Shown here in pieces: positions 20,839 to 61,099 of a stretch of 64,000 bases of DNA; the stretch's first letter is position 1; every line of letters begins with the position of its first letter. Made by a program: the position numbers and the translations under genes. The notes under the pieces were generated by a model. It did no database searches and was not told where the DNA came from. It saw nothing but the letters and a program-made list of their open reading frames with translations. This DNA is from Candidatus Babeliales bacterium (lineage in GTDB: Bacteria; Babelota; Babeliae; Babelales; Vermiphilaceae), in NCBI GenBank assembly GCA_963743635.1, contig CAVUQO010000003.1, positions 448,001 through 512,000 on the forward strand, written 5' to 3'.

Positions 20839-21246
20839 TTATCTTTGTTGAATAGCAGCTTTTAGTAGCAGTACATACGCTTGGAATGCAGCATGTGCTT
20901 TTTCTCGGGTAGCAGCATTTTTAGTGTGTGCAAACACGAGACTTTCTTGCACTATTGCTTGTTCAAGGTAATCATTTTCTTGGAATGACCTTGTTTCGGC
21001 TGACCATTTAGTAGTAGAAGGTATAAGAGGTTTTAGTAGTTTTGCATACTCTTGGAATGTTTCATGTGCTTTTTCTCTGGTAGCAGTATTTCTATTTTGT
21101 GTAAACACGAGACTTTCTTGCGCTTCTAAGTTTTCAAGTAGTGAGAGTGCTCTTTCCCTTTTCGCCATATCCTCTTTGTAACTTGCAAACACCGATGATC
21201 CGCAGCATACCAATGCCACGAGGGCGACTAATTTTAGATTTTTCAT
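20839..21246 (-). CDS. Secreted protein with internal duplication, related to leader family B
   Basis: VALVCCGSSVFA leader; two QESLVF...ATREKAH..FQ.Y..LLK repeats. Confidence 0.8.
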   Translation of the reverse strand: MKNLKLVALVALVCCGSSVFASYKEDMAKRERALSLLENLEAQESLVFTQNRNTATREKAHETFQEYAKLLKPLIPSTTKWSAETRSFQENDYLEQAIVQESLVFAHTKNAATREKAHAAFQAYVLLLKAAIQQR

Positions 21247-44288: not shown

Positions 44289-45152
44289 ATGAAGCTGTTA
44301 AGAAATATGATGATCGTGGCACTGGTGTGCTATGGGCAATCAGTGCTGGCCATGGATTTGAAAAAACTACAAAAGGATGTGAAAAGCGCATTGGGCATAG
44401 ACTCAAAAATGTCGCGTGAAGAGGTAGACAACATAAAAAAAATAGGCGAAGAGTTAAAGCTGCGCGTCGATGCAATAAAGAGCGATGGCCTCAAGAATGA
44501 GATAAAGAATATGACCGGGCCGAACCAACAATATCAGCTTGAACAGCTGGATATTCAAAGGATCGAGGATTACATCAAAACATATTTTAGTCGATTCGAT
44601 ACTGCTCTTAAAAACTTTAATGATGCTATTGTAATGCTTAAAGAAAAAAAGAACGAAAAAGCCGCAGAAAATATGCGGACACTTCTTTATAATCAGATAA
44701 AAATTGTGCTTGATGCAAAAAAACAAGAATTTAATGAGATTAAAAATGCATCTATAGCCAAATCTGAGGAAGCTAAGCAAAAACAACAAGAACTAGCGCA
44801 AAGAAATATAGAGGCTGCAAAACTAAAAAAAGAAGAACAGAAGAAACGAAGAGAAGAAGAACTAAAAATAAAAATGGCAAAAGAAGAAGAAGAACTAAAA
44901 ATCAGAGAAGAAGAAGAACAAAGACTCAGAGAAGCAGCAGAAAAGAATAAAACGCCAGAAGAAAAAGCAAAAGAGAAACAAGCACTTGAGGAAAAAATAC
45001 GTGAAAAGCAAGAATTGATTAATCGCTTGTCTGGCGCTCATGATTATATGTCGGAGCAACGTAGAAGAGATGCACAAGACACCTTAGAAAGACATAAAAG
45101 AAAGTTCCGTGAGAAATATGGCACTGATTGGGTGGAAAATACAAAAAACTAA
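44289..45152 (+). CDS. Secreted coiled-coil protein, leader family B (copy 1)
   Basis: MKLLRNMMIVALVCYGQSVLA-MD; K/E-rich C-terminus. Confidence 0.85.
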   Translation: MKLLRNMMIVALVCYGQSVLAMDLKKLQKDVKSALGIDSKMSREEVDNIKKIGEELKLRVDAIKSDGLKNEIKNMTGPNQQYQLEQLDIQRIEDYIKTYFSRFDTALKNFNDAIVMLKEKKNEKAAENMRTLLYNQIKIVLDAKKQEFNEIKNASIAKSEEAKQKQQELAQRNIEAAKLKKEEQKKRREEELKIKMAKEEEELKIREEEEQRLREAAEKNKTPEEKAKEKQALEEKIREKQELINRLSGAHDYMSEQRRRDAQDTLERHKRKFREKYGTDWVENTKN

Positions 45153-46673: not shown

Positions 46674-47048
46674 ATGAAGATGTTAAGAAATATGATGATT
46701 GTGGCACTGGTGTGCTCAGGTGCATCGGCAATGGCGATGAGTGAAGAGGATAAGAGAGTGCAAGAACTTACTCATCAGATCGAGCAGGATGAACAAACTC
46801 TAGCCTCTTTGGGATATGGTGGTGAAGGGAGTTGGTCAAAGAACATTATCAAAAAGGCAATTGAAGAGCGTACGCCCGAGTTAAAGAAGCAGCTGAAACA
46901 AGCAATACAACAAGCAATCGCAGTAAAAGAAACTAGGATACAATCTTTGGGATATGGTGGTGAAGAGAGTTGGTCAAAGAACATCATTAAAGAACAAATG
47001 CAAAAGGATATAGCTGGCTTACAAAAGCAGCTTGCTGAACTTGAATAA
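46674..47048 (+). CDS. Secreted protein, leader family B (copy 3), with internal duplication
   Basis: MKMLRNMMIVALVCSGASAMA-MS; SLGYGGE.SWSKNIIK occurs twice. Confidence 0.85.
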   Translation: MKMLRNMMIVALVCSGASAMAMSEEDKRVQELTHQIEQDEQTLASLGYGGEGSWSKNIIKKAIEERTPELKKQLKQAIQQAIAVKETRIQSLGYGGEESWSKNIIKEQMQKDIAGLQKQLAELE

Positions 47049-50620: not shown

Positions 50621-50703
50621 GATTCCGATCATTGCGTATTATTCTTGAACTATTTTATAATATCCCAAAATAGTTGAGGCATGTACGTAATGGGGGGATC
50701 ATT

Positions 50704-52284
50704 ATGAAGTCCGTAAAAAGAATAAAATTGCTTTGTCTCTTATTGCTTGCGAATCACGGTCACGTGATGTACGCAGACAATTTGGTATTCACGGTCACAG
50801 CGCTGTGTGATGATGAATGCGAAGAAAATCTGCATGATACCTCTGCTCGTAAGAGCGATAGCGCATTATGCAGATCACGCAAGTCTGATGAACAGGCTGA
50901 ACGTCGTTATATCAATACGGTCACCGTTAAGAGCGTTGAGGCTCCTACGCTTGATTCCAATGGGAATTTAACCGAAGAATCGGCCAAAATTCTTTTAGCG
51001 CAAGCGTATAACGAAGGAAAATTGCAAAATTCCGCTTTTAAGGATATCAATTCTTTAAAGGTCACCGATATCAAGAGCCGGGAACAAGGTAATTTTACCG
51101 AACAACTTTTCCTGGTGGAATCTACTTGCGGCAATCCCGCAGAAAAAACATTTATTTTTAAGGGCATCGGTGAAGCTGATGAAATTGAGATGCTGGTGAA
51201 AGGATCTCGTTATGAAGATTTTCAGCCGCTTGTCTATCCGAATGCACAAGATGGGTATCCTCAAATAGTTTTCCCGTTGGCCTACTTCTCATACAAAGAT
51301 CAGCACGGCCGAATTCGATCTCTTTCTTTAATGAATGTTGCATCAGGGAAGAAAGTGTTAGCGCTTATGGGACACTTTGGCAGCATTTCGAGCGCTCAAG
51401 AACGTGAGTCTATGCATGGCATGATCAGCGCTGCCTATTTTCAGTTTGGTTCTCAAATGGCAAGATTCTATAGAAGGTATGCGAGATTCTGGCCTGGCGC
51501 GATTCCTATGGGTATACGGCATGGCGATCTGCATATCGGTAATGTTTTTTACGATCACGATAGCAAGCAAATAACGCTTATTGATAATAACCGTATCGCA
51601 AAAACCATAGGGCAACCAGAGAATGTGTGGCGAGATTTTGTGCCGTTATTAATAAGAAGAGAGCCTCGCGTAAAAATTGATGACGCGGTGTATGGAGAGT
51701 GGCTTTCTTTGTCAGTGCCAGGCTTTATGATTGGTTTTTTGAGTGCGTATCCGGCATCTGAGCAGCTGAAGGTTTTTGACGAAATTGAAAAGGGTATCTC
51801 ATCGTATCAAAAATATGAAAATACAAAAATGCGCTATCAAGTGGGCGTTGTGCATCAAGCATTGTATGCACTGGGTAAGAATATCAAGTCATGCTTGTAT
51901 GAAGGCGATATGCTTAAAAGGGTCAAAAAGTGGATGATCAAAAGACCCTTGGTAGCCAATGATGTTGGGGTGAATGCAAAAGGTGAGCATGGCGCAACGG
52001 TATTGCATGAGGCAGTTGAAGCGCATGAACGATTGATCGTGTGGCCGCTCATTGCAGCAGGAGCAGATCTGAATATGCGGGACAACAATGGTCATACACC
52101 ATTGCATATCGCAGCACGATGTAATAATACTGACGCCATAAAAATATTAGTTGCTGCAGGCGCTGATATGAATGCGCGAACGCGCAATGGCCATACGCCG
52201 CATGATGTGGCGGTAAGTAGCAAGAGCAAGGATGCGATTGCTGCATTGCGCGCCTTTGGAGCAAAAAAGGGCGCCGGGCGGTGA
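50704..52284 (+). CDS. Secreted kinase-like (APH/protein kinase fold) plus ankyrin repeat protein
   Basis: Signal peptide; FIFK, RHGDLHIGN, LIDN; GHTPLHIAA ankyrin repeats. Confidence 0.8.
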   Translation: MKSVKRIKLLCLLLLANHGHVMYADNLVFTVTALCDDECEENLHDTSARKSDSALCRSRKSDEQAERRYINTVTVKSVEAPTLDSNGNLTEESAKILLAQAYNEGKLQNSAFKDINSLKVTDIKSREQGNFTEQLFLVESTCGNPAEKTFIFKGIGEADEIEMLVKGSRYEDFQPLVYPNAQDGYPQIVFPLAYFSYKDQHGRIRSLSLMNVASGKKVLALMGHFGSISSAQERESMHGMISAAYFQFGSQMARFYRRYARFWPGAIPMGIRHGDLHIGNVFYDHDSKQITLIDNNRIAKTIGQPENVWRDFVPLLIRREPRVKIDDAVYGEWLSLSVPGFMIGFLSAYPASEQLKVFDEIEKGISSYQKYENTKMRYQVGVVHQALYALGKNIKSCLYEGDMLKRVKKWMIKRPLVANDVGVNAKGEHGATVLHEAVEAHERLIVWPLIAAGADLNMRDNNGHTPLHIAARCNNTDAIKILVAAGADMNARTRNGHTPHDVAVSSKSKDAIAALRAFGAKKGAGR

Positions 52285-52938: not shown

Positions 52939-53679
52939 ATGAAAATATTGAAAAAAATAACGCTGATAATGCTTGCATGTGCTCTCTGCAGTCAACCGAT
53001 ATTGGCGATGAGTGAAAAAATGCTGGAAAAATATAAAAAACAAGAACAGGAAAAAAGGGAAGCGGAAGCAAGGCGGGAAGCTGCAAAAAAAAGAGAAGAA
53101 GAGATAAGTAAAGAATGCGCAATCTGCTTGGAGGGGATGAAAGAATCTGATGATCTTGCAACTTTATCGTGCAAGCATACGTTTCATAAAGAATGCATTA
53201 AGGATTGGTTAAAGCGGCAAACAACGTGTCCGGTATGCAGAAACCCTATCTCTCAACAAGATCAAGACGTTATTAATGCAGTAAAAAAGATTGAAAAAGG
53301 TAAACAGCCTGCTCGAGCGGGTGAATCATCACGTATGGGTGAGCAACGAGGTCAACGGCAAGCGGCAGTTGAGGATATCGAAGCAAGGGATCAGTATGGT
53401 AGGACTGCATTGCAAAGAGCAGCGATAGCGGGTGATTTTGATTTAGTAAAGACGCTGATCGCGCGTGGTGCGAATGTTAATACGAGAGATAATCACCAAA
53501 ATACACCATTACATGATGCTGCATGGTACGGTCACAACTTTGTCATAATAGCACTTGCAAACGCCGGAGCCGACGTTAATGCCCGCAATAGACATGGTCT
53601 TACACCGCTCGGTAAGGCTCATGCTAATAATAAGACAAGAGAAGAGCGCATTTTGCGGGATATATATCACGCGCGATGA
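52939..53679 (+). CDS. Secreted RING-H2 plus ankyrin repeat protein, leader family C
   Basis: CAIC...CKHTFHKECI..W.....CPVCR; NTPLHDAA ankyrin repeats. Confidence 0.92.
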   Translation: MKILKKITLIMLACALCSQPILAMSEKMLEKYKKQEQEKREAEARREAAKKREEEISKECAICLEGMKESDDLATLSCKHTFHKECIKDWLKRQTTCPVCRNPISQQDQDVINAVKKIEKGKQPARAGESSRMGEQRGQRQAAVEDIEARDQYGRTALQRAAIAGDFDLVKTLIARGANVNTRDNHQNTPLHDAAWYGHNFVIIALANAGADVNARNRHGLTPLGKAHANNKTREERILRDIYHAR

Positions 53680-53787
53680 GAAATTTCTTGAGAACGGGAT
53701 ATTCGCGTAACAGGGCGTTTTGAAAGAGCGTAAGCTGATAAGTTTGAATAATGAAAAAATATGTAAATAGCCGATGAAGCGGAATGG

Positions 53788-54040
53788 GCCGGAGCATCAG
53801 CTAATATCTCGGTATATTATCGCACTCCTGATAACAAACTCATGAAATATCATTATGAGCACAAAGAACACGAAAAAGAAATAAAAGTACCAGAAGACGA
53901 TATAACTAATTCGTATGAAGCGGCTGCTATTGAAACAATGATTAATGGCGTGAAAGAAAGTATCTCAAAAGAAGAATTGCTTTAGCATATTCATCGCGAC
54001 TAATAAAAATACGTGTCCTGCCTATCCTGGTGGGGCACGT
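53788..54040 (+). repeat. About 250-bp direct repeat: orphan copy of the 3' end and terminator of the next gene (56266-56519)
   Basis: Near-identical DNA encoding ISVYYRTPDNKLMKYHYEHKEHEKEIK...ESISKEE; stop at 53983-53985. Confidence 0.9.
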
Positions 54041-54087
54041 TAAACATAATGAAAACCATAATATTTATGTATAAAGGAAGGAGCGAT

Positions 54088-56463
54088 ATGAAGATGTTCA
54101 AAAAAATAACGCTGATAATGTTTGCACTTGCTCTCTCTACTCAGCCGATGTTGGCGATGAGTGAGAAGGCGCTAGCAAAATGGAAAAAAGCAGAGCAAGA
54201 AAAGAGAGAAGTGGCGGCCGCAGCAGCGGCGAGAACAACTCCAATCGCAAGTAGCTCATCAGTCATCCCGGCAGCACCTCCTGCGCCCGCTCTAAAACCA
54301 TCGTCTCCTGCTGTAAAACAAAAAGTAAAAGTGGCAGTGCAGCCAAAACCAACGCAGTATACGGGTTATCGTAAACTCGCGATTTTATTGACTTCAGATG
54401 AAGAAAAATTGTCCAATGAAGCACTCAAAACGTTATCGGATCATGAGGATATTGATGATCCGTCGTTTCAGTCGGCATTCACCAATTTATTGGCAGATAT
54501 TCTTTGCCAAAAAGCAATTCCGGTCTTGGTTTGTGAACCCTGCATTTTGGAAAATATTTTCCTCTTACAATATGCAACGGCAAAATTCAGTGAAAAAAAT
54601 GACTATGATAGTGCAGATCTAAAACAGACATTGCGTGATGACGCTGAGATGAGAAAAGATGCACAGAATATGAAGAAGTCAAACCCTGGTCCGATCTCAG
54701 AAAAATCTCCCTTCTTTATTCGTTATAAAGAGCTGTATTCTCCAAGAGACAAAGATGAATCAGAAGATGGGGCAGAGTACATTTCGAGCATACCAATAGA
54801 TTTTCCACTTGATGTTATACCGAATGGGTGGGCTCTTTTTGAATATCATGATACGCATCCCAGTGAGAAAGCATACCTTTTAATTCCATCACCTCAAAAA
54901 TCCGATCCAATGCAATTGCTTATTGCGCATGGATTTAATCCTGCAGTATTTAGATATAAACCTTTTGCCGTTTTTATGAAAGAGTTGAAGGAAAAATCAG
55001 ATTATTCTGACTATGGCAAAAAAGGCAGCAAGAAAGAAGTAATGAGCTCTCAAGAAGTGAAAGCGGCATTGCATGCTTTCTCGCTGAGCGCGCTTACTAT
55101 TATTAATCAATCACTTACCGATGATGCCACTAAACCTTGGACATTATTAATTGGAGGCCATGGACAGATAAAAACTTCAGAGTTGAGTGATGCTAGTATC
55201 GCTGGGATGTCAGCGGATGTGCTGACTAAGGGATTATTGCCGCTGCTGGTAGATAAAAATAGTCGATTTTGTTATTTCTGGACGTGTGATATCGGGGGGG
55301 GTAATAGAGATCTTATTCGCGAAGTATTTGCCAACGTACATATAGCCAATGAGTTGTTGCCAGAGCTTAAAAGCATGCTGAAAAAAAAGACGCCTCAGTA
55401 TCCAAATAATCTCATTACGGTTGTTGGAGGCATCTCGGATATTACAGTATTGTCGATGACGCCAGTGCCTATACCAACCGATAGCATTGCATCTTTTAAT
55501 AAGGTATGGACGAGCATTGATAAGGATGATCCCATTGCCATGCATTTCTTACCATTAATTCCAAGCGTGCGCTATGATCTCTTTTTTAAGGGCCTTGAGC
55601 AGCATTTAAGGGCTGAGGATCAAAAAGGTAAATCTACCAAAGAATTAGTGACGCCATGGAAAGAGCTGCTTAAGTATGTAACGCCATACAATTTTGCAAA
55701 AGGAGAGTATTTCTATAGCAATATTCCGCAAATTCGTTTTCCAACGCACGATGCAGCATTTAATGCTCTTGAGGTGGATGGACGGATTCAGGTGTTGACG
55801 TACGTTGACGTAAAAGCGCGCGAGTTTGAGGCAAAGTTGAGAGGTCAAGCTGCTGCGAAACCAATCATCGTTGATAATAAAGATATGCTCATTGTGTATC
55901 CATTAAGCGTTAATGCGCCGGTTGAAATGATGCAAAAGGATCCTGCAATCGTTCCCGCTCGAGCAGAAACTATGGGCATGTTTTTCAAAAAGATCACGTG
56001 TCCGCCGAGCAAAAATTTGCAAAATACCATCCACACTCTCTTTACCTATGAAGCAATGGGCGGCAGAAAAATCGCACGTTCGTTTTTAGTGGAAGAACTT
56101 GGTCTCAGCAATAGGGTGTATAAAGACGTCTTGGTAACGAGCAAATCGGTAGAGCCAGAGGGTGTATGGAACGAAGAAACCAAGGAATATGACTATCCGG
56201 CCTCTGCATGGGTGTGGAATGAGCAAACGCAAGAGGAGGGGTCTGAATCCAGTGAACCGGAATTCGCCGGAGCATCAGTTGATATCTCAGTATATTATCG
56301 CACTCCTGATAACAAACTCATGAAATATCATTATGAGCACAAAGAACACGAAAAAGAAATAAAAGTACCAGAAGACGATATAACTAATTCGTATGAAGCG
56401 GCTGCTATTGAAGCAATGATTAATGGCGTGAAAGAAAGTATCTCAAAGGAAGAAGCGCTATAG
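54088..56463 (+). CDS. Large secreted protein, leader family C, with putative clan CD cysteine protease domain
   Basis: Family C leader; WTLLIGGHG...IAGMSADVL...FCYFWTC. Confidence 0.8.
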   Translation: MKMFKKITLIMFALALSTQPMLAMSEKALAKWKKAEQEKREVAAAAAARTTPIASSSSVIPAAPPAPALKPSSPAVKQKVKVAVQPKPTQYTGYRKLAILLTSDEEKLSNEALKTLSDHEDIDDPSFQSAFTNLLADILCQKAIPVLVCEPCILENIFLLQYATAKFSEKNDYDSADLKQTLRDDAEMRKDAQNMKKSNPGPISEKSPFFIRYKELYSPRDKDESEDGAEYISSIPIDFPLDVIPNGWALFEYHDTHPSEKAYLLIPSPQKSDPMQLLIAHGFNPAVFRYKPFAVFMKELKEKSDYSDYGKKGSKKEVMSSQEVKAALHAFSLSALTIINQSLTDDATKPWTLLIGGHGQIKTSELSDASIAGMSADVLTKGLLPLLVDKNSRFCYFWTCDIGGGNRDLIREVFANVHIANELLPELKSMLKKKTPQYPNNLITVVGGISDITVLSMTPVPIPTDSIASFNKVWTSIDKDDPIAMHFLPLIPSVRYDLFFKGLEQHLRAEDQKGKSTKELVTPWKELLKYVTPYNFAKGEYFYSNIPQIRFPTHDAAFNALEVDGRIQVLTYVDVKAREFEAKLRGQAAAKPIIVDNKDMLIVYPLSVNAPVEMMQKDPAIVPARAETMGMFFKKITCPPSKNLQNTIHTLFTYEAMGGRKIARSFLVEELGLSNRVYKDVLVTSKSVEPEGVWNEETKEYDYPASAWVWNEQTQEEGSESSEPEFAGASVDISVYYRTPDNKLMKYHYEHKEHEKEIKVPEDDITNSYEAAAIEAMINGVKESISKEEAL

Positions 56464-56620
56464 CGTATTCATCGCAATCAATAAAAATACGTGCCCTGCC
56501 TATCCTGGTGGGGCACATTTACTATCATGAACAGTCATTCATTACGGGAAGTATTGCGATGCATCGTGAACTATTGGTATGGTATTTCGAAAAGCATGAA
56601 CTATAAAACAAGGAAAAGAT

Positions 56621-59600
56621 ATGAAATTATTAAAGCAAATCGTTTTGATACTCGCCGTTGTATATAATCAATCAATAGGTGCAATGGAAGAAGCTATTCC
56701 TAAAGTGCCAATGCCACCTGCCCTAAAACCAACGTTGCCCGTGCGTATCCCACGAAAGAAAAAGTCCCAACCGCCGCATCTCAATCAATGCCTAAGACGT
56801 ATCGTAGATTGACGGCATTGATTACGCATAATGAAGAAAAATTTCCTACATCAGAACTTTCGGGCATATTTGAAGGCAAAAGTATTACGATTAATTCAGC
56901 ATTGACCAGCGATATGGCAGACCTTTTGAGCCAAAAAGCAGCGCCCATTTTGGTGTGTGGTTCATATCTTTTTGAAAACATCTTATTGTTAAAAGTTGCA
57001 ACCGAAGCATATATTAAAAAAGATGCAGCATGGGCAAAGGGTGCTGTAGCAATTAAGCAAATGAAAGAAAAGATACAAAAAACATATGCAACGCTCTATA
57101 AAAATAAGCCGATCCAAAAAGAGGATCCCTTCTTTACTGAGTATCAAGAACTTCTCAGTCTTGCTCCCGAGAAATATTCTACAGAATCGTTTAATGAGTT
57201 ATTTGTGTGGGAAATACCAGCATTATATCCCCTTGATGACATTTCGAAGGATTGGTTATTATTTGAGTATCATAGTGGACAGCAACCCGGTCCTGCATAT
57301 CTTTTAATACCCTATGAAAATGCGGATGCAAGAAAACCGATGGGAGATGCATTGCGCGGTATATTGATTGAGCATGGCTTTAATCCAGGAGTATTGCGTG
57401 CAGTATCGATCAAAGATCTCGAAACTGAATTGATCAATAATAAGGGCTATTCGTTTTATACCAACAGTATGTCTAATCAAGATTTTGCGCAGTTTTCATC
57501 CGGTGTTTCTACCGTATTTAATCAGATAATGACTGATGATCCGAATCAACCATGGATACTCTGGATGTCTGGACACGGAATAGTTACTCAAAATGTTCGG
57601 GAAAATAGAGTAGCTGGGATGTATTTAAGCGATTTTACGCAAGATCTACTACCGCTCTTAGTAGATAAAAATAGTCGTTTTTGTTATGTAAGCTCGTGTC
57701 AAATAGGGCTCACCAACAGAGACATGATTCGTACTTATTTTTCAGGTATTCGTGTGGCAGGCGGTTTAGGACCAAAATTTAAAGGTAAACCAGTTAAATA
57801 TCCGAATAATCTTATTCTTGTTCTGGGAGGTATATCAGATGTTTTGACAAGAAGCATGCAACTTACTCCAATACCGGCGACGAGCATTGAGAAATTTAAT
57901 AAGGTATGGGCAGGCATTGATAAGAATGATCCCGTTTCGCTCCATTTTTTGCCATTTGTGCCAGCAGTCCGTTATGATAAATTTTTTGGTGCTCTTGCAA
58001 AGCAGTTAAGCGCAGAGGAATTACCGGCATCATCAAAAACGATGCTGTCTCCATGGAAGGATGTCTTGAGGTATACAACCCCGTATGATGTTAATAAGGG
58101 TACGTATATCTATAATAATATTCCTCAAATTCGTTTCCCGACATACGATGCAGCATTTAATGTTATTGACGTTGATCAACATATTCAGACTTTACGGTAT
58201 GTTGAGGTAAAAGCACGCGAGCTTGAGGCACAATTATCGGGTAAGCCGCTTGAGAATTATCCAATAAAAATCGATAACAAAGATATGGTGTTGATCTATC
58301 CATTAAGCATTAACGTGCCGCTTGATATCACTGGAAAATGTCCTGCAATGGTCTCTGCACGTGCAGGATCATTCAAAATGTTTTTCAAAAAAATTGTATG
58401 CGATGTTGAGGGCGATTTGCCGAATGTATTAGATACACTCTTTGCATACGAATTAAAAAGTGACTTTCCTCTAGAAGCATTGCCAGAAGAAACATTGGTT
58501 CGTGAGGTGTTAGTTGAGGAGTTACTACTCAATGGTATTTCTTTTTATAACATTCGTATGCTTGGCAGTGCCGATACCATAACGGTTTATTACCACGATC
58601 AAGATAATAAGCTTATGGGATATAATTATGAAACGCAGTGGGAGCAAATGAAGCTTAGTTGGGCCTCTCTCTTTCGAAGGGGAGCAAATGAGCTTCGAAC
58701 AAACTCTTTGCCAATAACTGACCCCCTTGCTATCGAACAGCGATTTAATGAAAGCAAGGAAAGTATCTTAAAAGAAGAGGGACTGCCAGCAGGGGTATCA
58801 CGAGAAACGGCGACCAAGCAAGAGCAGTTTTCTTTTGATGTGTTAAAAAAACGCATAGCTGATTTGCACTCGGCCTTCGAGCAAAAGCAGGCTTCGCTCA
58901 TTAAAGAATCTGCGCAAACGATTGCCTATATGTTGGCATCCGATGCTTCATTGCAGTTGTTACAAGAAAATAATGCAGAAATGATTGCGTTACTTAAGAG
59001 CATCGATCCGAGTATGAAGCTTGTTATTTATGCGCAAATGCCAGGAGTAGCATGGGAAGAGCGATTTGAATTCTCTTCTCAAGAAAATCAACTGTTATCA
59101 CTCGCCTACTTCCCTGATGGAAATCGGCTGCTGATTAGTGGGTCTAAAGGCGCGAAAATATGGGATGCGTCTAATGGAACAATGATACAACAAATAACAG
59201 CTGGCAAAGTCAGAGCAACACTTTCATTCGATGGAACTAAGATAGTTGCCCCATATGGTTTTTTCACCGCGCAAATATGGGACGAGTCCGGCAAGGAGCT
59301 CTATAAAATTCAGCATGAGATCGAGAGCCATTATTTTGACATTGAAAAGGCGGTATTTTCATCTGATGGAATGAAGATAGCAGCTGCTTGTAGCGATGGT
59401 ATTGCAAGAATATGGACGTTGAATAATGGAGTACCACAGTTTGATCGTGCCTTGAAACAGGGAGAATTAGGTGATTCAGCGCGTGCAATAGCATTTTCGC
59501 CGAACGCAGATCGTGTGGTAGTTGGAAATGATGTAAGCCATGTAAGAATATGGAATGCACTCAATGGGCAGTTGGAGCATGACCTTAAGGCTCATCTCGG

Positions 59601-60096
59601 TGTCGTTTATTCAGTAGCATTTTCACGCGATGGAAGAAAGATAGTGACGGCGTCTTCGGATAATACGGCGAAGATATGGGATGCAGATACTGGCACATTA
59701 TTGCATACGCTGACGCATCCAAATCAAGTTTATTCAGCAGAATTTTCAGCAGATGGCACGCAAGTGTTGACGGCGTGTAGGGATGGTAATGCAAGAATAT
59801 GGAATTCAATAAGCGGTATCATTGTCTTCACATTGGATTGCGGAGATTCTGACAGAGCAGCAGCGTTTTCACGCAGTGGTCATGAGATAGCGACGGGTAC
59901 CGGTGATGGAAACGTGAAAATATGGACGTTAGGCGTTGCATTTAATTTTGATCAAGCATTGTTAGCGCAACTCTTAGCATGGGCAGCGCAGCATGATAAA
60001 AAAATAAGCATTAGGCTAAATACATGGGCTGGGGATGCTTGGAACATGGCCCATAAAGAATTGCGTGAAAAGTATCAGAGCGCGGTGCAGAAATAA
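56621..60096 (+). CDS. Large secreted protein: putative clan CD protease domain plus WD40 repeats (frameshift near 56745 separates the signal peptide)
   Basis: SIGA-ME leader and PALKP linker as in the paralogue; WILWMSGHG...FCYVSSC; VYSVAFSRDGRKIVTASSDNTAKIWD. Confidence 0.85.
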
Positions 60097-60124
60097 TATG
60101 TTATTCGATTGCAAGGAGATAACG

Positions 60125-61099
60125 ATGAATATGTTGAAAAAAATAACGTTGATAATGTTTGCATGTGCGCTGTACAGTCAATCGATGTTGGCGATGAGTG
60201 AGAAAGCGCTGGAAAAATGGAAAAAAGTAGAGCAAGCAAAGAGAGAAGCGGCAGCCACAGCTCGTAAGCAAACCGTATTATCATTTGATATTGATGACGT
60301 TATCAGTGGAAAAGCAAAAATAGGAATTAGTGATTATCTTACGTTGGTGCTGCGCATGATGCTTTGGAATCCGATGGTGGTCACCGCACTCTTTCCTGCT
60401 AACCAAGCGGCAATGAGTCAGTATGTTACTGAAATACAAAAAACGGTGAATGGTGGTTCAAACGTCGTGCACGAAATCATAGGATATTTAAAAAATAACG
60501 GCTATGGCGATCTTTCTTGTTACGAGCCTGAGATTATTGAACGTTCGCAAAAGCCATATCCCGTAACGCGTATGATTGATGATATTAAAAAGCTCAAAGC
60601 AGCAGGTTACAGCGTTATAGGTGCGACCAATCAGGATTATATGCAGCATCAGGCATATCGGCGGTATATGAAAGACGTCCATGGTATCGATCTCAATACA
60701 CTCTTTGATGCTGTGTTGACGACGTGCGTGTATCATGCTGCGCAACCGGCTGGTGATGATTTATGCTACCGACTCAATGCAACAGACAATATCTATGTAG
60801 CGCGCAATCGTGAAGCTTATAAACCGCATTCCAGTTATTTTACCGTCGTTCAAGAATTGGCCAAAAAAGTTGAGCCAACAAGTACGCGCGTTATACATAC
60901 TGACGATAGAAAAGAGAATATTGACGCGGCGGAACAAGCGGGCATAGAAGGCATTCATTTTAATCTGCCAGGAGAAAGTGTCCGCAAAACAACTCCTGCT
61001 GATCTGGATAATAGTATCAATGCCTGGGAAGCTGAGCTAAAGGGTTTGGGCATTCAGGGGTTAGCCGTCCAACAAAATTCCCAAGCGGCATACGTTTAA
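60125..61099 (+). CDS. Secreted HAD-superfamily phosphatase, leader family C
   Basis: FDIDD (motif I), ATN, KP, TDDRKENIDAA..AGI.GIHF. Confidence 0.85.
   Translation: MNMLKKITLIMFACALYSQSMLAMSEKALEKWKKVEQAKREAAATARKQTVLSFDIDDVISGKAKIGISDYLTLVLRMMLWNPMVVTALFPANQAAMSQYVTEIQKTVNGGSNVVHEIIGYLKNNGYGDLSCYEPEIIERSQKPYPVTRMIDDIKKLKAAGYSVIGATNQDYMQHQAYRRYMKDVHGIDLNTLFDAVLTTCVYHAAQPAGDDLCYRLNATDNIYVARNREAYKPHSSYFTVVQELAKKVEPTSTRVIHTDDRKENIDAAEQAGIEGIHFNLPGESVRKTTPADLDNSINAWEAELKGLGIQGLAVQQNSQAAYV

Follow-up and report, generated by a model that had tools for sequence, protein, structure and literature searches.

A predicted signal peptide and a conserved post-cleavage helix form a common leader on ten unrelated proteins of a Candidatus Babeliales bacterium

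Three genes in the window analysed here, a stretch of 64,000 nucleotides from a Candidatus Babeliales bacterium (contig CAVUQO010000003.1, positions 448,001 to 512,000), encode proteins that begin with the same leader, termed family C: a predicted signal peptide followed by a short conserved helix. The leader is best explained as an N-terminal module of about 45 residues, apparently restricted to one species, that recombination has put in front of at least ten unrelated, probably secreted and effector-like proteins. In the mechanism that we propose, the signal-peptide half would direct transit across the inner membrane by the Sec pathway and be cut by signal peptidase I after ...LA. The protein in its mature form would then start with the helix, with a flexible linker and the cargo behind it, and the helix would act as a recognition tag after Sec transit, that is, as a signal for second-step sorting or export that is recognised by envelope machinery, possibly that of type II secretion (T2SS). 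To the helix being such a second-step tag for the type II machinery we give a probability of roughly one in three.

The three open reading frames (ORFs) start exactly at positions 52939, 54088 and 60125 of the + strand. Their common N-terminus is 43-45 residues long and consists of a signal peptide ending ...LA-M, with the predicted cut between Ala and Met, and then MSEKxLxK(W/Y)KKxEQxKRE. The first 46 residues can be aligned without gaps, at 67-69% identity to the first sequence. In the DNA, homology sets in roughly 20 nt ahead of the ATG for the genes at 52939 and 54088 and at the ATG itself for the gene at 60125, and it runs out near codon 43. The initial annotation had described a leader of about 42 codons common to these genes, with conservation running beyond the predicted cleavage site. 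Its coordinates were right, the helix is conserved past ...LA-M, and a profile made from the three leaders recovered its own genes with E-values of 1e-28 to 1e-30, far beyond chance. The features of this part of the window are as follows.

52939..53679, + strand: family-C gene 1, 246 aa, leader, RING-H2 and ankyrin repeats (ORF; Pfam zf-RING_2 and Ank families)
52939..53007, + strand: signal-peptide part of leader 1, codons 1-23, MKILKKITLIMLACALCSQPILA (read from the sequence)
53008..53067, + strand: post-cleavage helix of leader 1, codons 24-43, MSEKMLEKYKKQEQEKREAE (helix-only profile match exactly here; mainly synonymous divergence)
54088..56463, + strand: family-C gene 2, leader, Ala/Ser/Pro linker and a 700-aa domain with invariant GHG...C-x-IGG
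54088..54216, + strand: leader 2, signal peptide 54088-54156, MKMFKKITLIMFALALSTQPMLA, and helix 54157-54216, MSEKALAKWKKAEQEKREVA (profile and helix-only profile)
56621..60096, + strand: paralogue, in tandem, of the cargo of gene 2 (43% identity; BLASTP 3.6e-150), ending in a WD40 propeller (Pfam WD40 matches)
60125..61099, + strand: family-C gene 3, 324 aa, leader joined directly to a HAD-fold phosphatase (ORF, alignment and model)
60125..60253, + strand: leader 3, signal peptide 60125-60193, MNMLKKITLIMFACALYSQSMLA, and helix 60194-60253, MSEKALEKWKKVEQAKREAA (profile and helix-only profile)

The profile search covered 15,666 six-frame ORFs of the 1.45 Mb genome and returned, in addition to the three window genes, 8 further ORFs below the inclusion threshold. 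An eleventh candidate member, on contig C1 (E 0.0015), was rejected: it has an ordinary signal peptide, ...ILS-MQNQ, without the helix. Both halves of the leader are carried not by the three window genes alone but by ten genes, at 64-90 bits each, the other seven being the following, all from the genome profile search.

L001:301-1023, - strand: further leader gene
L002:301-1347, - strand: further leader gene
L003:301-2376, + strand: further leader gene
L004:1901-2428, - strand: further leader gene, UIM-like motifs
L004:3285-4997, - strand: further leader gene, UIM-like motifs
L005:301-1497, + strand: further leader gene
L006:301-1596, + strand: further leader gene, RBR/IBR E3 ligase cargo (Pfam)

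When the ten cargoes were compared with each other by BLASTP past residue 45, no mutual similarity was observed at E 1e-3, and outside the window Pfam named only one of them, the RBR/IBR E3 ligase of L006. The junctions between leader and cargo lie at residues 45-58, and homology stops sharply at about codon 43-45 in all members. The leader is therefore a portable unit, as the initial annotation had proposed, and has been recombined onto unrelated cargoes. Leader genes occur in local groups: the three of the window fall inside 8 kb, and the members of two other pairs lie 1-5 kb from each other. No promoter cassette common to all of family C was found; upstream DNA is common to local pairs only, and the two L004 genes share both upstream DNA and a short extra stretch.

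The helix has the consensus MSEKALEKWKKxEQxKRE, which is highly charged with a small Met/Ala/Leu/Trp face, and seven of the ten leaders have an aromatic residue at mature position 9. A profile of the helix alone gave seven matches in the genome (E 7e-11 to 4e-6; the next had E 1.2); each of them lies directly behind the Ala that ends the signal peptide, and none is internal. In pairwise Nei-Gojobori comparisons of the five closest leaders, a small sample of 19-20 codons each, dN of the helix was 0.04-0.20 and dS ran from 0.24 to saturation; omega was 0.05-0.15 in most pairs, as against 0.2-0.7 for the signal-peptide half. Between the gene at 60125 and that of L001, for instance, 5 synonymous differences were counted over 9.7 sites and 2 non-synonymous differences over 47.3. 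A conservative column count over 19 helix codons of the same leaders required a minimum of 11 synonymous and 12 non-synonymous changes, giving an omega of 0.22-0.44 with P between 6e-4 and 0.04 over kappa 1-8; the signal-peptide half was not significant in this count for kappa >=2. These results show that the helix is kept at the protein level by purifying selection.

The initial annotation had itself considered that the helix might evolve neutrally, as hitch-hiking DNA from a recent duplication. This explanation, in which the helix is without function and the common 130 nt were carried along by recent duplication or gene conversion, draws on the occurrence of members in local pairs or trios and on the upstream DNA common to some pairs. 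With omega at about 0.05-0.44, however, the post-cleavage helix is not neutral: its synonymous sites have reached or approached saturation in most pairs whereas the peptide is conserved, the synonymous excess is significant at the P values given above, and the end of homology is sharp in every member. As divergence is mainly at synonymous sites, the helix is not a neutral hitch-hiker. Gene conversion would erase synonymous differences too, and neither it nor recent duplication can yield this pattern of synonymous divergence. The explanation is therefore largely refuted, and we regard it as the least probable of those considered.

The signal-peptide half of the ten leaders has the form MK..KK, followed by 12-13 uncharged residues and Q(P/S)x(L/F/I)A, with an invariant Ala at -1 and I, M, V or L at -3. 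In leader 1 the n-region is MKxxKK, the uncharged h-region has 12-13 residues, and Ala and Ile stand at -1 and -3, respectively. A Cys within the h-region is not conserved, and neither a lipobox nor a Tat signal is present in the ten leaders, all of which have Met at +1 and none of which has RR. The first half of the leader has the sequence features of a Sec signal peptide cut by signal peptidase I, and we infer that the proteins are exported by Sec and cleaved between Ala and Met. If the N-terminus were instead an uncleaved signal anchor, the proteins would be tethered in the inner membrane and the helix would be a periplasmic stalk. An AlphaFold model of the product of the gene at 60125, in which residues 2-48 form one continuous helix (pLDDT 84-87), would suit such an arrangement. 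However, with an uncharged core of just 12-13 residues, then polar Gln, Ser or Pro and then a small residue at -1, the sequence has the shape of a cleavable signal and not of a membrane span, and it is not obvious what RING, RBR and ankyrin cargoes would act on in the bacterial periplasm, so that an anchor appears improbable.

On iteration the profile gathered approximately 31 ORFs that match the leader in its signal-peptide half alone, MK.LK..ALVALVCYGQS.LAM. This signal peptide is accordingly a variant of a stereotyped type found across the genome, and it is the helix that defines the subfamily. In a crude scan, Ala-Met was found directly after the hydrophobic core in 149 of 601 signal-peptide- or membrane-like N-termini, against 49 of 943 controls. 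Met was the commonest residue after Ala in signal-peptide-like N-termini (151), followed by Leu (98). Examples of the junction in the window are the genes at 52939, 54088, 60125, 44289, 45370 and 46674, and it was also seen in cargo-selected homologues from other Dependentiae. A secreted protein of this type would, once mature, have Met as its first residue, as cytosolic proteins of eukaryotes do. About 14 genes for small signal-peptide proteins (MK[NI]LK..ALVALVCYGQS.LAM) have a common promoter and 5'-UTR cassette of about 85 nt, including a box, TATTAATCTTCATAA, located 11-18 nt before the ATG. Such genes are found in the window at 20839-21246 (- strand) and 46674-47048 (+ strand), with weaker examples at 44289 and 45370, and elsewhere in L004, L007 and L009. 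They belong to a leader family other than family C, conserved at the DNA level.

That the helix strictly adjoins the cleavage site would also fit a role confined to export itself. As an early mature region it might make fast-folding domains of eukaryotic type compatible with Sec, or present the Ala-Met site in the right way to one of the two signal peptidases, and have no later role. Early mature regions influence Sec export, the genome has two tandem signal peptidase I genes, and in the model of the HAD protein the helix runs directly into the first strand of the fold. On the other hand, about 140 other proteins have the same Ala-Met junction without the helix, HAD homologues use ordinary signal peptides and short linkers, and Sec export is not usually favoured by several lysines among the first 11 residues of a mature protein. 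We consider a pure export aid unlikely.

The HAD-fold cargo gave a view of what the leader has added. Its assignment as a HAD phosphatase in the initial annotation agrees with the DxDx(T/V) motif, with the AlphaFold model and with the Foldseek matches. Motif I reads DIDDV, and D55 and D57 are invariant in all 12 aligned sequences. The model has a pLDDT of 91.9 and matches HAD folds in Foldseek at probability 1.00; there were 102 matches at E<=0.001, and among the 50 listed, natural HAD-superfamily proteins predominate, one of these being the phosphatase domain of soluble epoxide hydrolase, which is HAD-like. The Pfam HAD_2 match, taken alone, is below its cut-off. This cargo can be aligned with its paralogue and orthologues from about residue 46 onwards. 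All 11 aligned homologues from other organisms have other hydrophobic, signal-peptide-like N-termini with short linkers; one HAD homologue bears the source name Candidatus Dependentiae bacterium. The second HAD copy in the genome, 43% identical, has its own signal peptide, ...LHA-MQDD; neither it nor any of the 11 foreign homologues has the family-C helix. The same was found in a family relative, which likewise has another signal-peptide-like N-terminus and lacks the helix.

Because the HAD homologues and the second copy bear ordinary signal peptides, it was an already exported protein that received the leader. The tandem paralogue of the 54088 cargo also starts with a different signal peptide, MKLLKQIVLILAVVYNQSIGA-MEE, and has no helix. 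The leader has thus replaced existing signal peptides, and the helix is what it brought in addition. The initial annotation had suggested that the leader turns captured domains into effectors; its attachment to unrelated cargoes stands, but as the HAD homologues already have signal peptides the claim was too strong for that cargo.

The RING-H2 and ankyrin cargo of the gene at 52939 was also correctly identified in the initial annotation: zf-RING_2 (PF13639) scores 59.2 bits against a cut-off of 27.3, ankyrin repeats are matched by Pfam, and the C3H2C3 spacing of a RING-H2 domain, CxxC...CxH..H..C...CxxC, can be seen in the sequence. The cysteine protease proposed for the 791-aa product of the gene at 54088 was not confirmed. 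This protein has no family match in Pfam, NCBIfam or PDB sequences (the best PDB hit, with E about 0.9, is noise), and only two outside homologues were found among 5.8 billion clustered proteins. A model from a four-sequence alignment reached a pLDDT of 47.2, too poor for a fold search. H358 (in GHG) and C400 (in C-x-IGG), both located after hydrophobic stretches, are invariant in all four sequences, and this pattern is compatible with the His-then-Cys dyad of a clan CD, caspase-like protease. In the paralogue at 56621-60096 the reading frame changes at an A-run near 56757-56766, so that it falls into two ORFs, 56621-56812 and 56788-60096; a genuine pseudogene, slippage and an error in sequencing the homopolymer are possible causes. 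Directly upstream of the leader genes, the protein encoded at 50674-52284 has a signal peptide, an APH/kinase-like region (E 2.6e-4, under the Pfam cut-off) and C-terminal ankyrin repeats. UIM-like motifs, EE[DE]AMIQEAIRLSL and EDAELREAMRLSLEQ, assigned provisionally by eye against the UIM consensus, stand directly behind the leader in both L004 genes (L004:1901-2428 and L004:3285-4997, both - strand) and in G000:C3:629129-629980 (- strand). Together with the RING-H2 and RBR cargoes they point to possible interference with host ubiquitin.

A phylum-wide distribution, which the initial annotation had envisaged searching for, was not observed: the leader was not found in 179 other genomes of the family and order, nor in other species among 1,835,955,588 representative proteins. 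With a profile of all ten leaders, the matches in 100 other genomes of the order were no more than weak and partial (best E 1.1e-4, 22.5 bits; 15 of the 100 with any match at E<=0.01), and in 79 other genomes of the family the best E was 6.5e-4, with any match in 19. The best 17 matches in the order, from 16 genomes, were rejected as generic signal peptides, none with the SEKALEKWKK block. All seven matches among the representative proteins are from this species, six being letter-identical to its own proteins and one identical at 429 of 431 positions; the three window proteins are not among them. P0002, an outside homologue of the 791-aa cargo whose N-terminus is probably cut, shows a faint likeness to the helix (...AVCAM-KALEKKQKE).

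The genome contains two secretins, two T2SS-E ATPases, a gspF-G-H-I-J-K-like operon, one TolC-like gene and the two tandem signal peptidase I genes, positioned as follows.

L061 (G000:C2:4000-12000): T2SS operon, with GspI/J/K-like pseudopilin genes at C2:7300-10150
G000:C3:523091-524866: two tandem signal peptidase I genes

VirB4, TssC and FHIPEP were not found in the genome, which is 85% complete, and apart from the T2SS no dedicated protein exporter of the outer membrane was found in it. This machinery agrees with reports on Babela and other Dependentiae, in the cited parts of which the T2SS is the only secretion system reported for Babela and most Dependentiae ankyrin effectors have signal peptides (PMC4378268, PMC6561590). 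Within the operon the gspF-like gene is present as two overlapping ORFs, L061 1132-1440 and 1301-2389, and the gene at the GspK position has no Pfam match. One of the tandem signal peptidases could be specialised for signal peptides of the Ala-Met type. The pilin (27336), PilD (28392) and Omp85 (36401) genes, which the initial annotation had named as possible machinery for the leader, are 14-25 kb distant, surrounded by housekeeping genes, and have no specific connection with it.

Several observations weigh against the helix as a type II recognition tag. As only 10 of roughly 150-600 signal-peptide-like proteins carry it, it is not a general T2SS signal in this organism, and the HAD relatives manage without it. 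The leader is known only from a single species, the genome yielded no minor pilin of the TcpB/CofB type, and the evidence of selection comes from the small codon sample described above. The helix is charged and helical whereas the TcpF/CofJ export signals, the nearest parallel, are extended and disordered. Nor is it significantly amphipathic: hydrophobic moments were 0.17-0.43, with a shuffle p <0.05 in one of eight leaders, and an amphipathic membrane-binding helix was rejected since the moment was no better than that of shuffles in the other seven. The stronger proposal, that the helix is a linear and transferable tag by which the T2SS selects ten diverse effectors, appears doubtful to us.

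The helix might instead work outside the bacterium, as a docking element that binds a host or surface partner or as a stiff stalk that holds the cargo off, travelling with the signal peptide only through adjacency as the two recombine in one block. We regard this as possible though tentative. Nothing ties the purifying selection on the helix to export, and a helix, flexible linker and cargo are an architecture typical of adaptor modules. The predicted cargoes (RING-H2, RBR/IBR E3 ligase, ankyrin and UIM-like motifs) would act on eukaryotic systems, charged helical character extends well beyond the conserved block in several members, and most secreted proteins of the genome are without the helix. 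An adaptor, however, has no need to stand at mature position 1, where the helix is found in all seven strong matches, although shared block ancestry could explain this, and no known interaction motif or Pfam family matched the leader, with six of the ten scanned at E up to 10.

Leaders common to unrelated effectors, and sorting motifs placed after a cleavage site, are both kinds already known. The phytoplasma sequence-variable-mosaic (SVM) signal peptide, Pfam PF12113, is likewise a conserved N-terminal leader on unrelated effectors in one host-dependent bacterial lineage. Its conservation is not known to extend past the signal peptide itself, and phytoplasmas have no outer membrane. Six of the ten family-C leaders, scanned against Pfam at E up to 10, had no match to PF12113 or to any other family, and NCBIfam signal-type models did not match six whole proteins. 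PEXEL, RxLR and the Crinkler LFLAK motif are also conserved short modules behind a signal peptide, recombined onto many effector C-termini. They differ in belonging to eukaryotic secretory pathways, with unrelated motifs and in families of hundreds rather than ten.

Returning to the helix as a recognition tag, we find the closest likeness in the export signal (ES) of TcpF and CofJ, which, in the cited parts of PMC10120004, is the N-terminus of the mature exoprotein and is read by a minor pilin of type IVb pili. In both cases a Sec signal peptide is followed by a short segment at the mature N-terminus, apart from the folded body (here the junctions are at residues 45-58), and the family-C leader may further be likened to the ES in its flexible linker, its movability to foreign cargo and its key aromatic residue. 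The machine concerned is of the T2SS/type IV pilus family, similar to the route proposed here. The systems differ in that TcpF/CofJ has one exoprotein per pilus system where here ten cargoes stand under one tag, and a TcpB/CofB-type minor pilin trimer as receptor, of which no counterpart was identified; the ES and the helix have no sequence similarity. The lipoprotein export signal (LES) of Bacteroidetes is, in the cited parts of PMC5080379, a short motif right after the cleavage site that sorts proteins to the cell surface; it acts on lipoproteins after the lipidated Cys, whereas in family-C leaders there is neither a Cys at +1 nor a lipobox. The signal-peptide-bearing ankyrin and ubiquitin-system effectors reported from Dependentiae come from the same kind of organism, with the same kinds of cargo (ankyrin, RING and further proteins related to ubiquitin) and the same inferred route by Sec and T2SS; the cited parts of those papers treat signal peptides in general and describe no conserved leader or post-cleavage helix (PMC4378268, PMC6561590). 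In the literature searched on signal peptides and secretion of Dependentiae, TM6, Babela and Babeliales, no description of the leader was found. What appears new is a conserved post-cleavage helix common to ten cargoes in a bacterium reliant on Sec and the T2SS.

It appears that Sec and the T2SS are all that Dependentiae use for the delivery of their large sets of eukaryote-like effectors. The choice of substrates by the T2SS is a long-standing question; to our knowledge no general linear signal is known, and recognition is thought to be structural. If the helix is indeed read by this system, it would be a multi-cargo counterpart of the single-cargo TcpF/CofJ signal and a first simple sequence tag for T2SS substrates. 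A selected tag of 20 residues, at a fixed position on ten cargoes, is a concrete candidate for recognition by secretion machinery or a host partner, and may offer a handle by which one effector class of this organism could be singled out. If it is merely a stalk or docking element, family C would still be a clear bacterial case of the shuffling of an effector N-terminal module, including the replacement of signal peptides.

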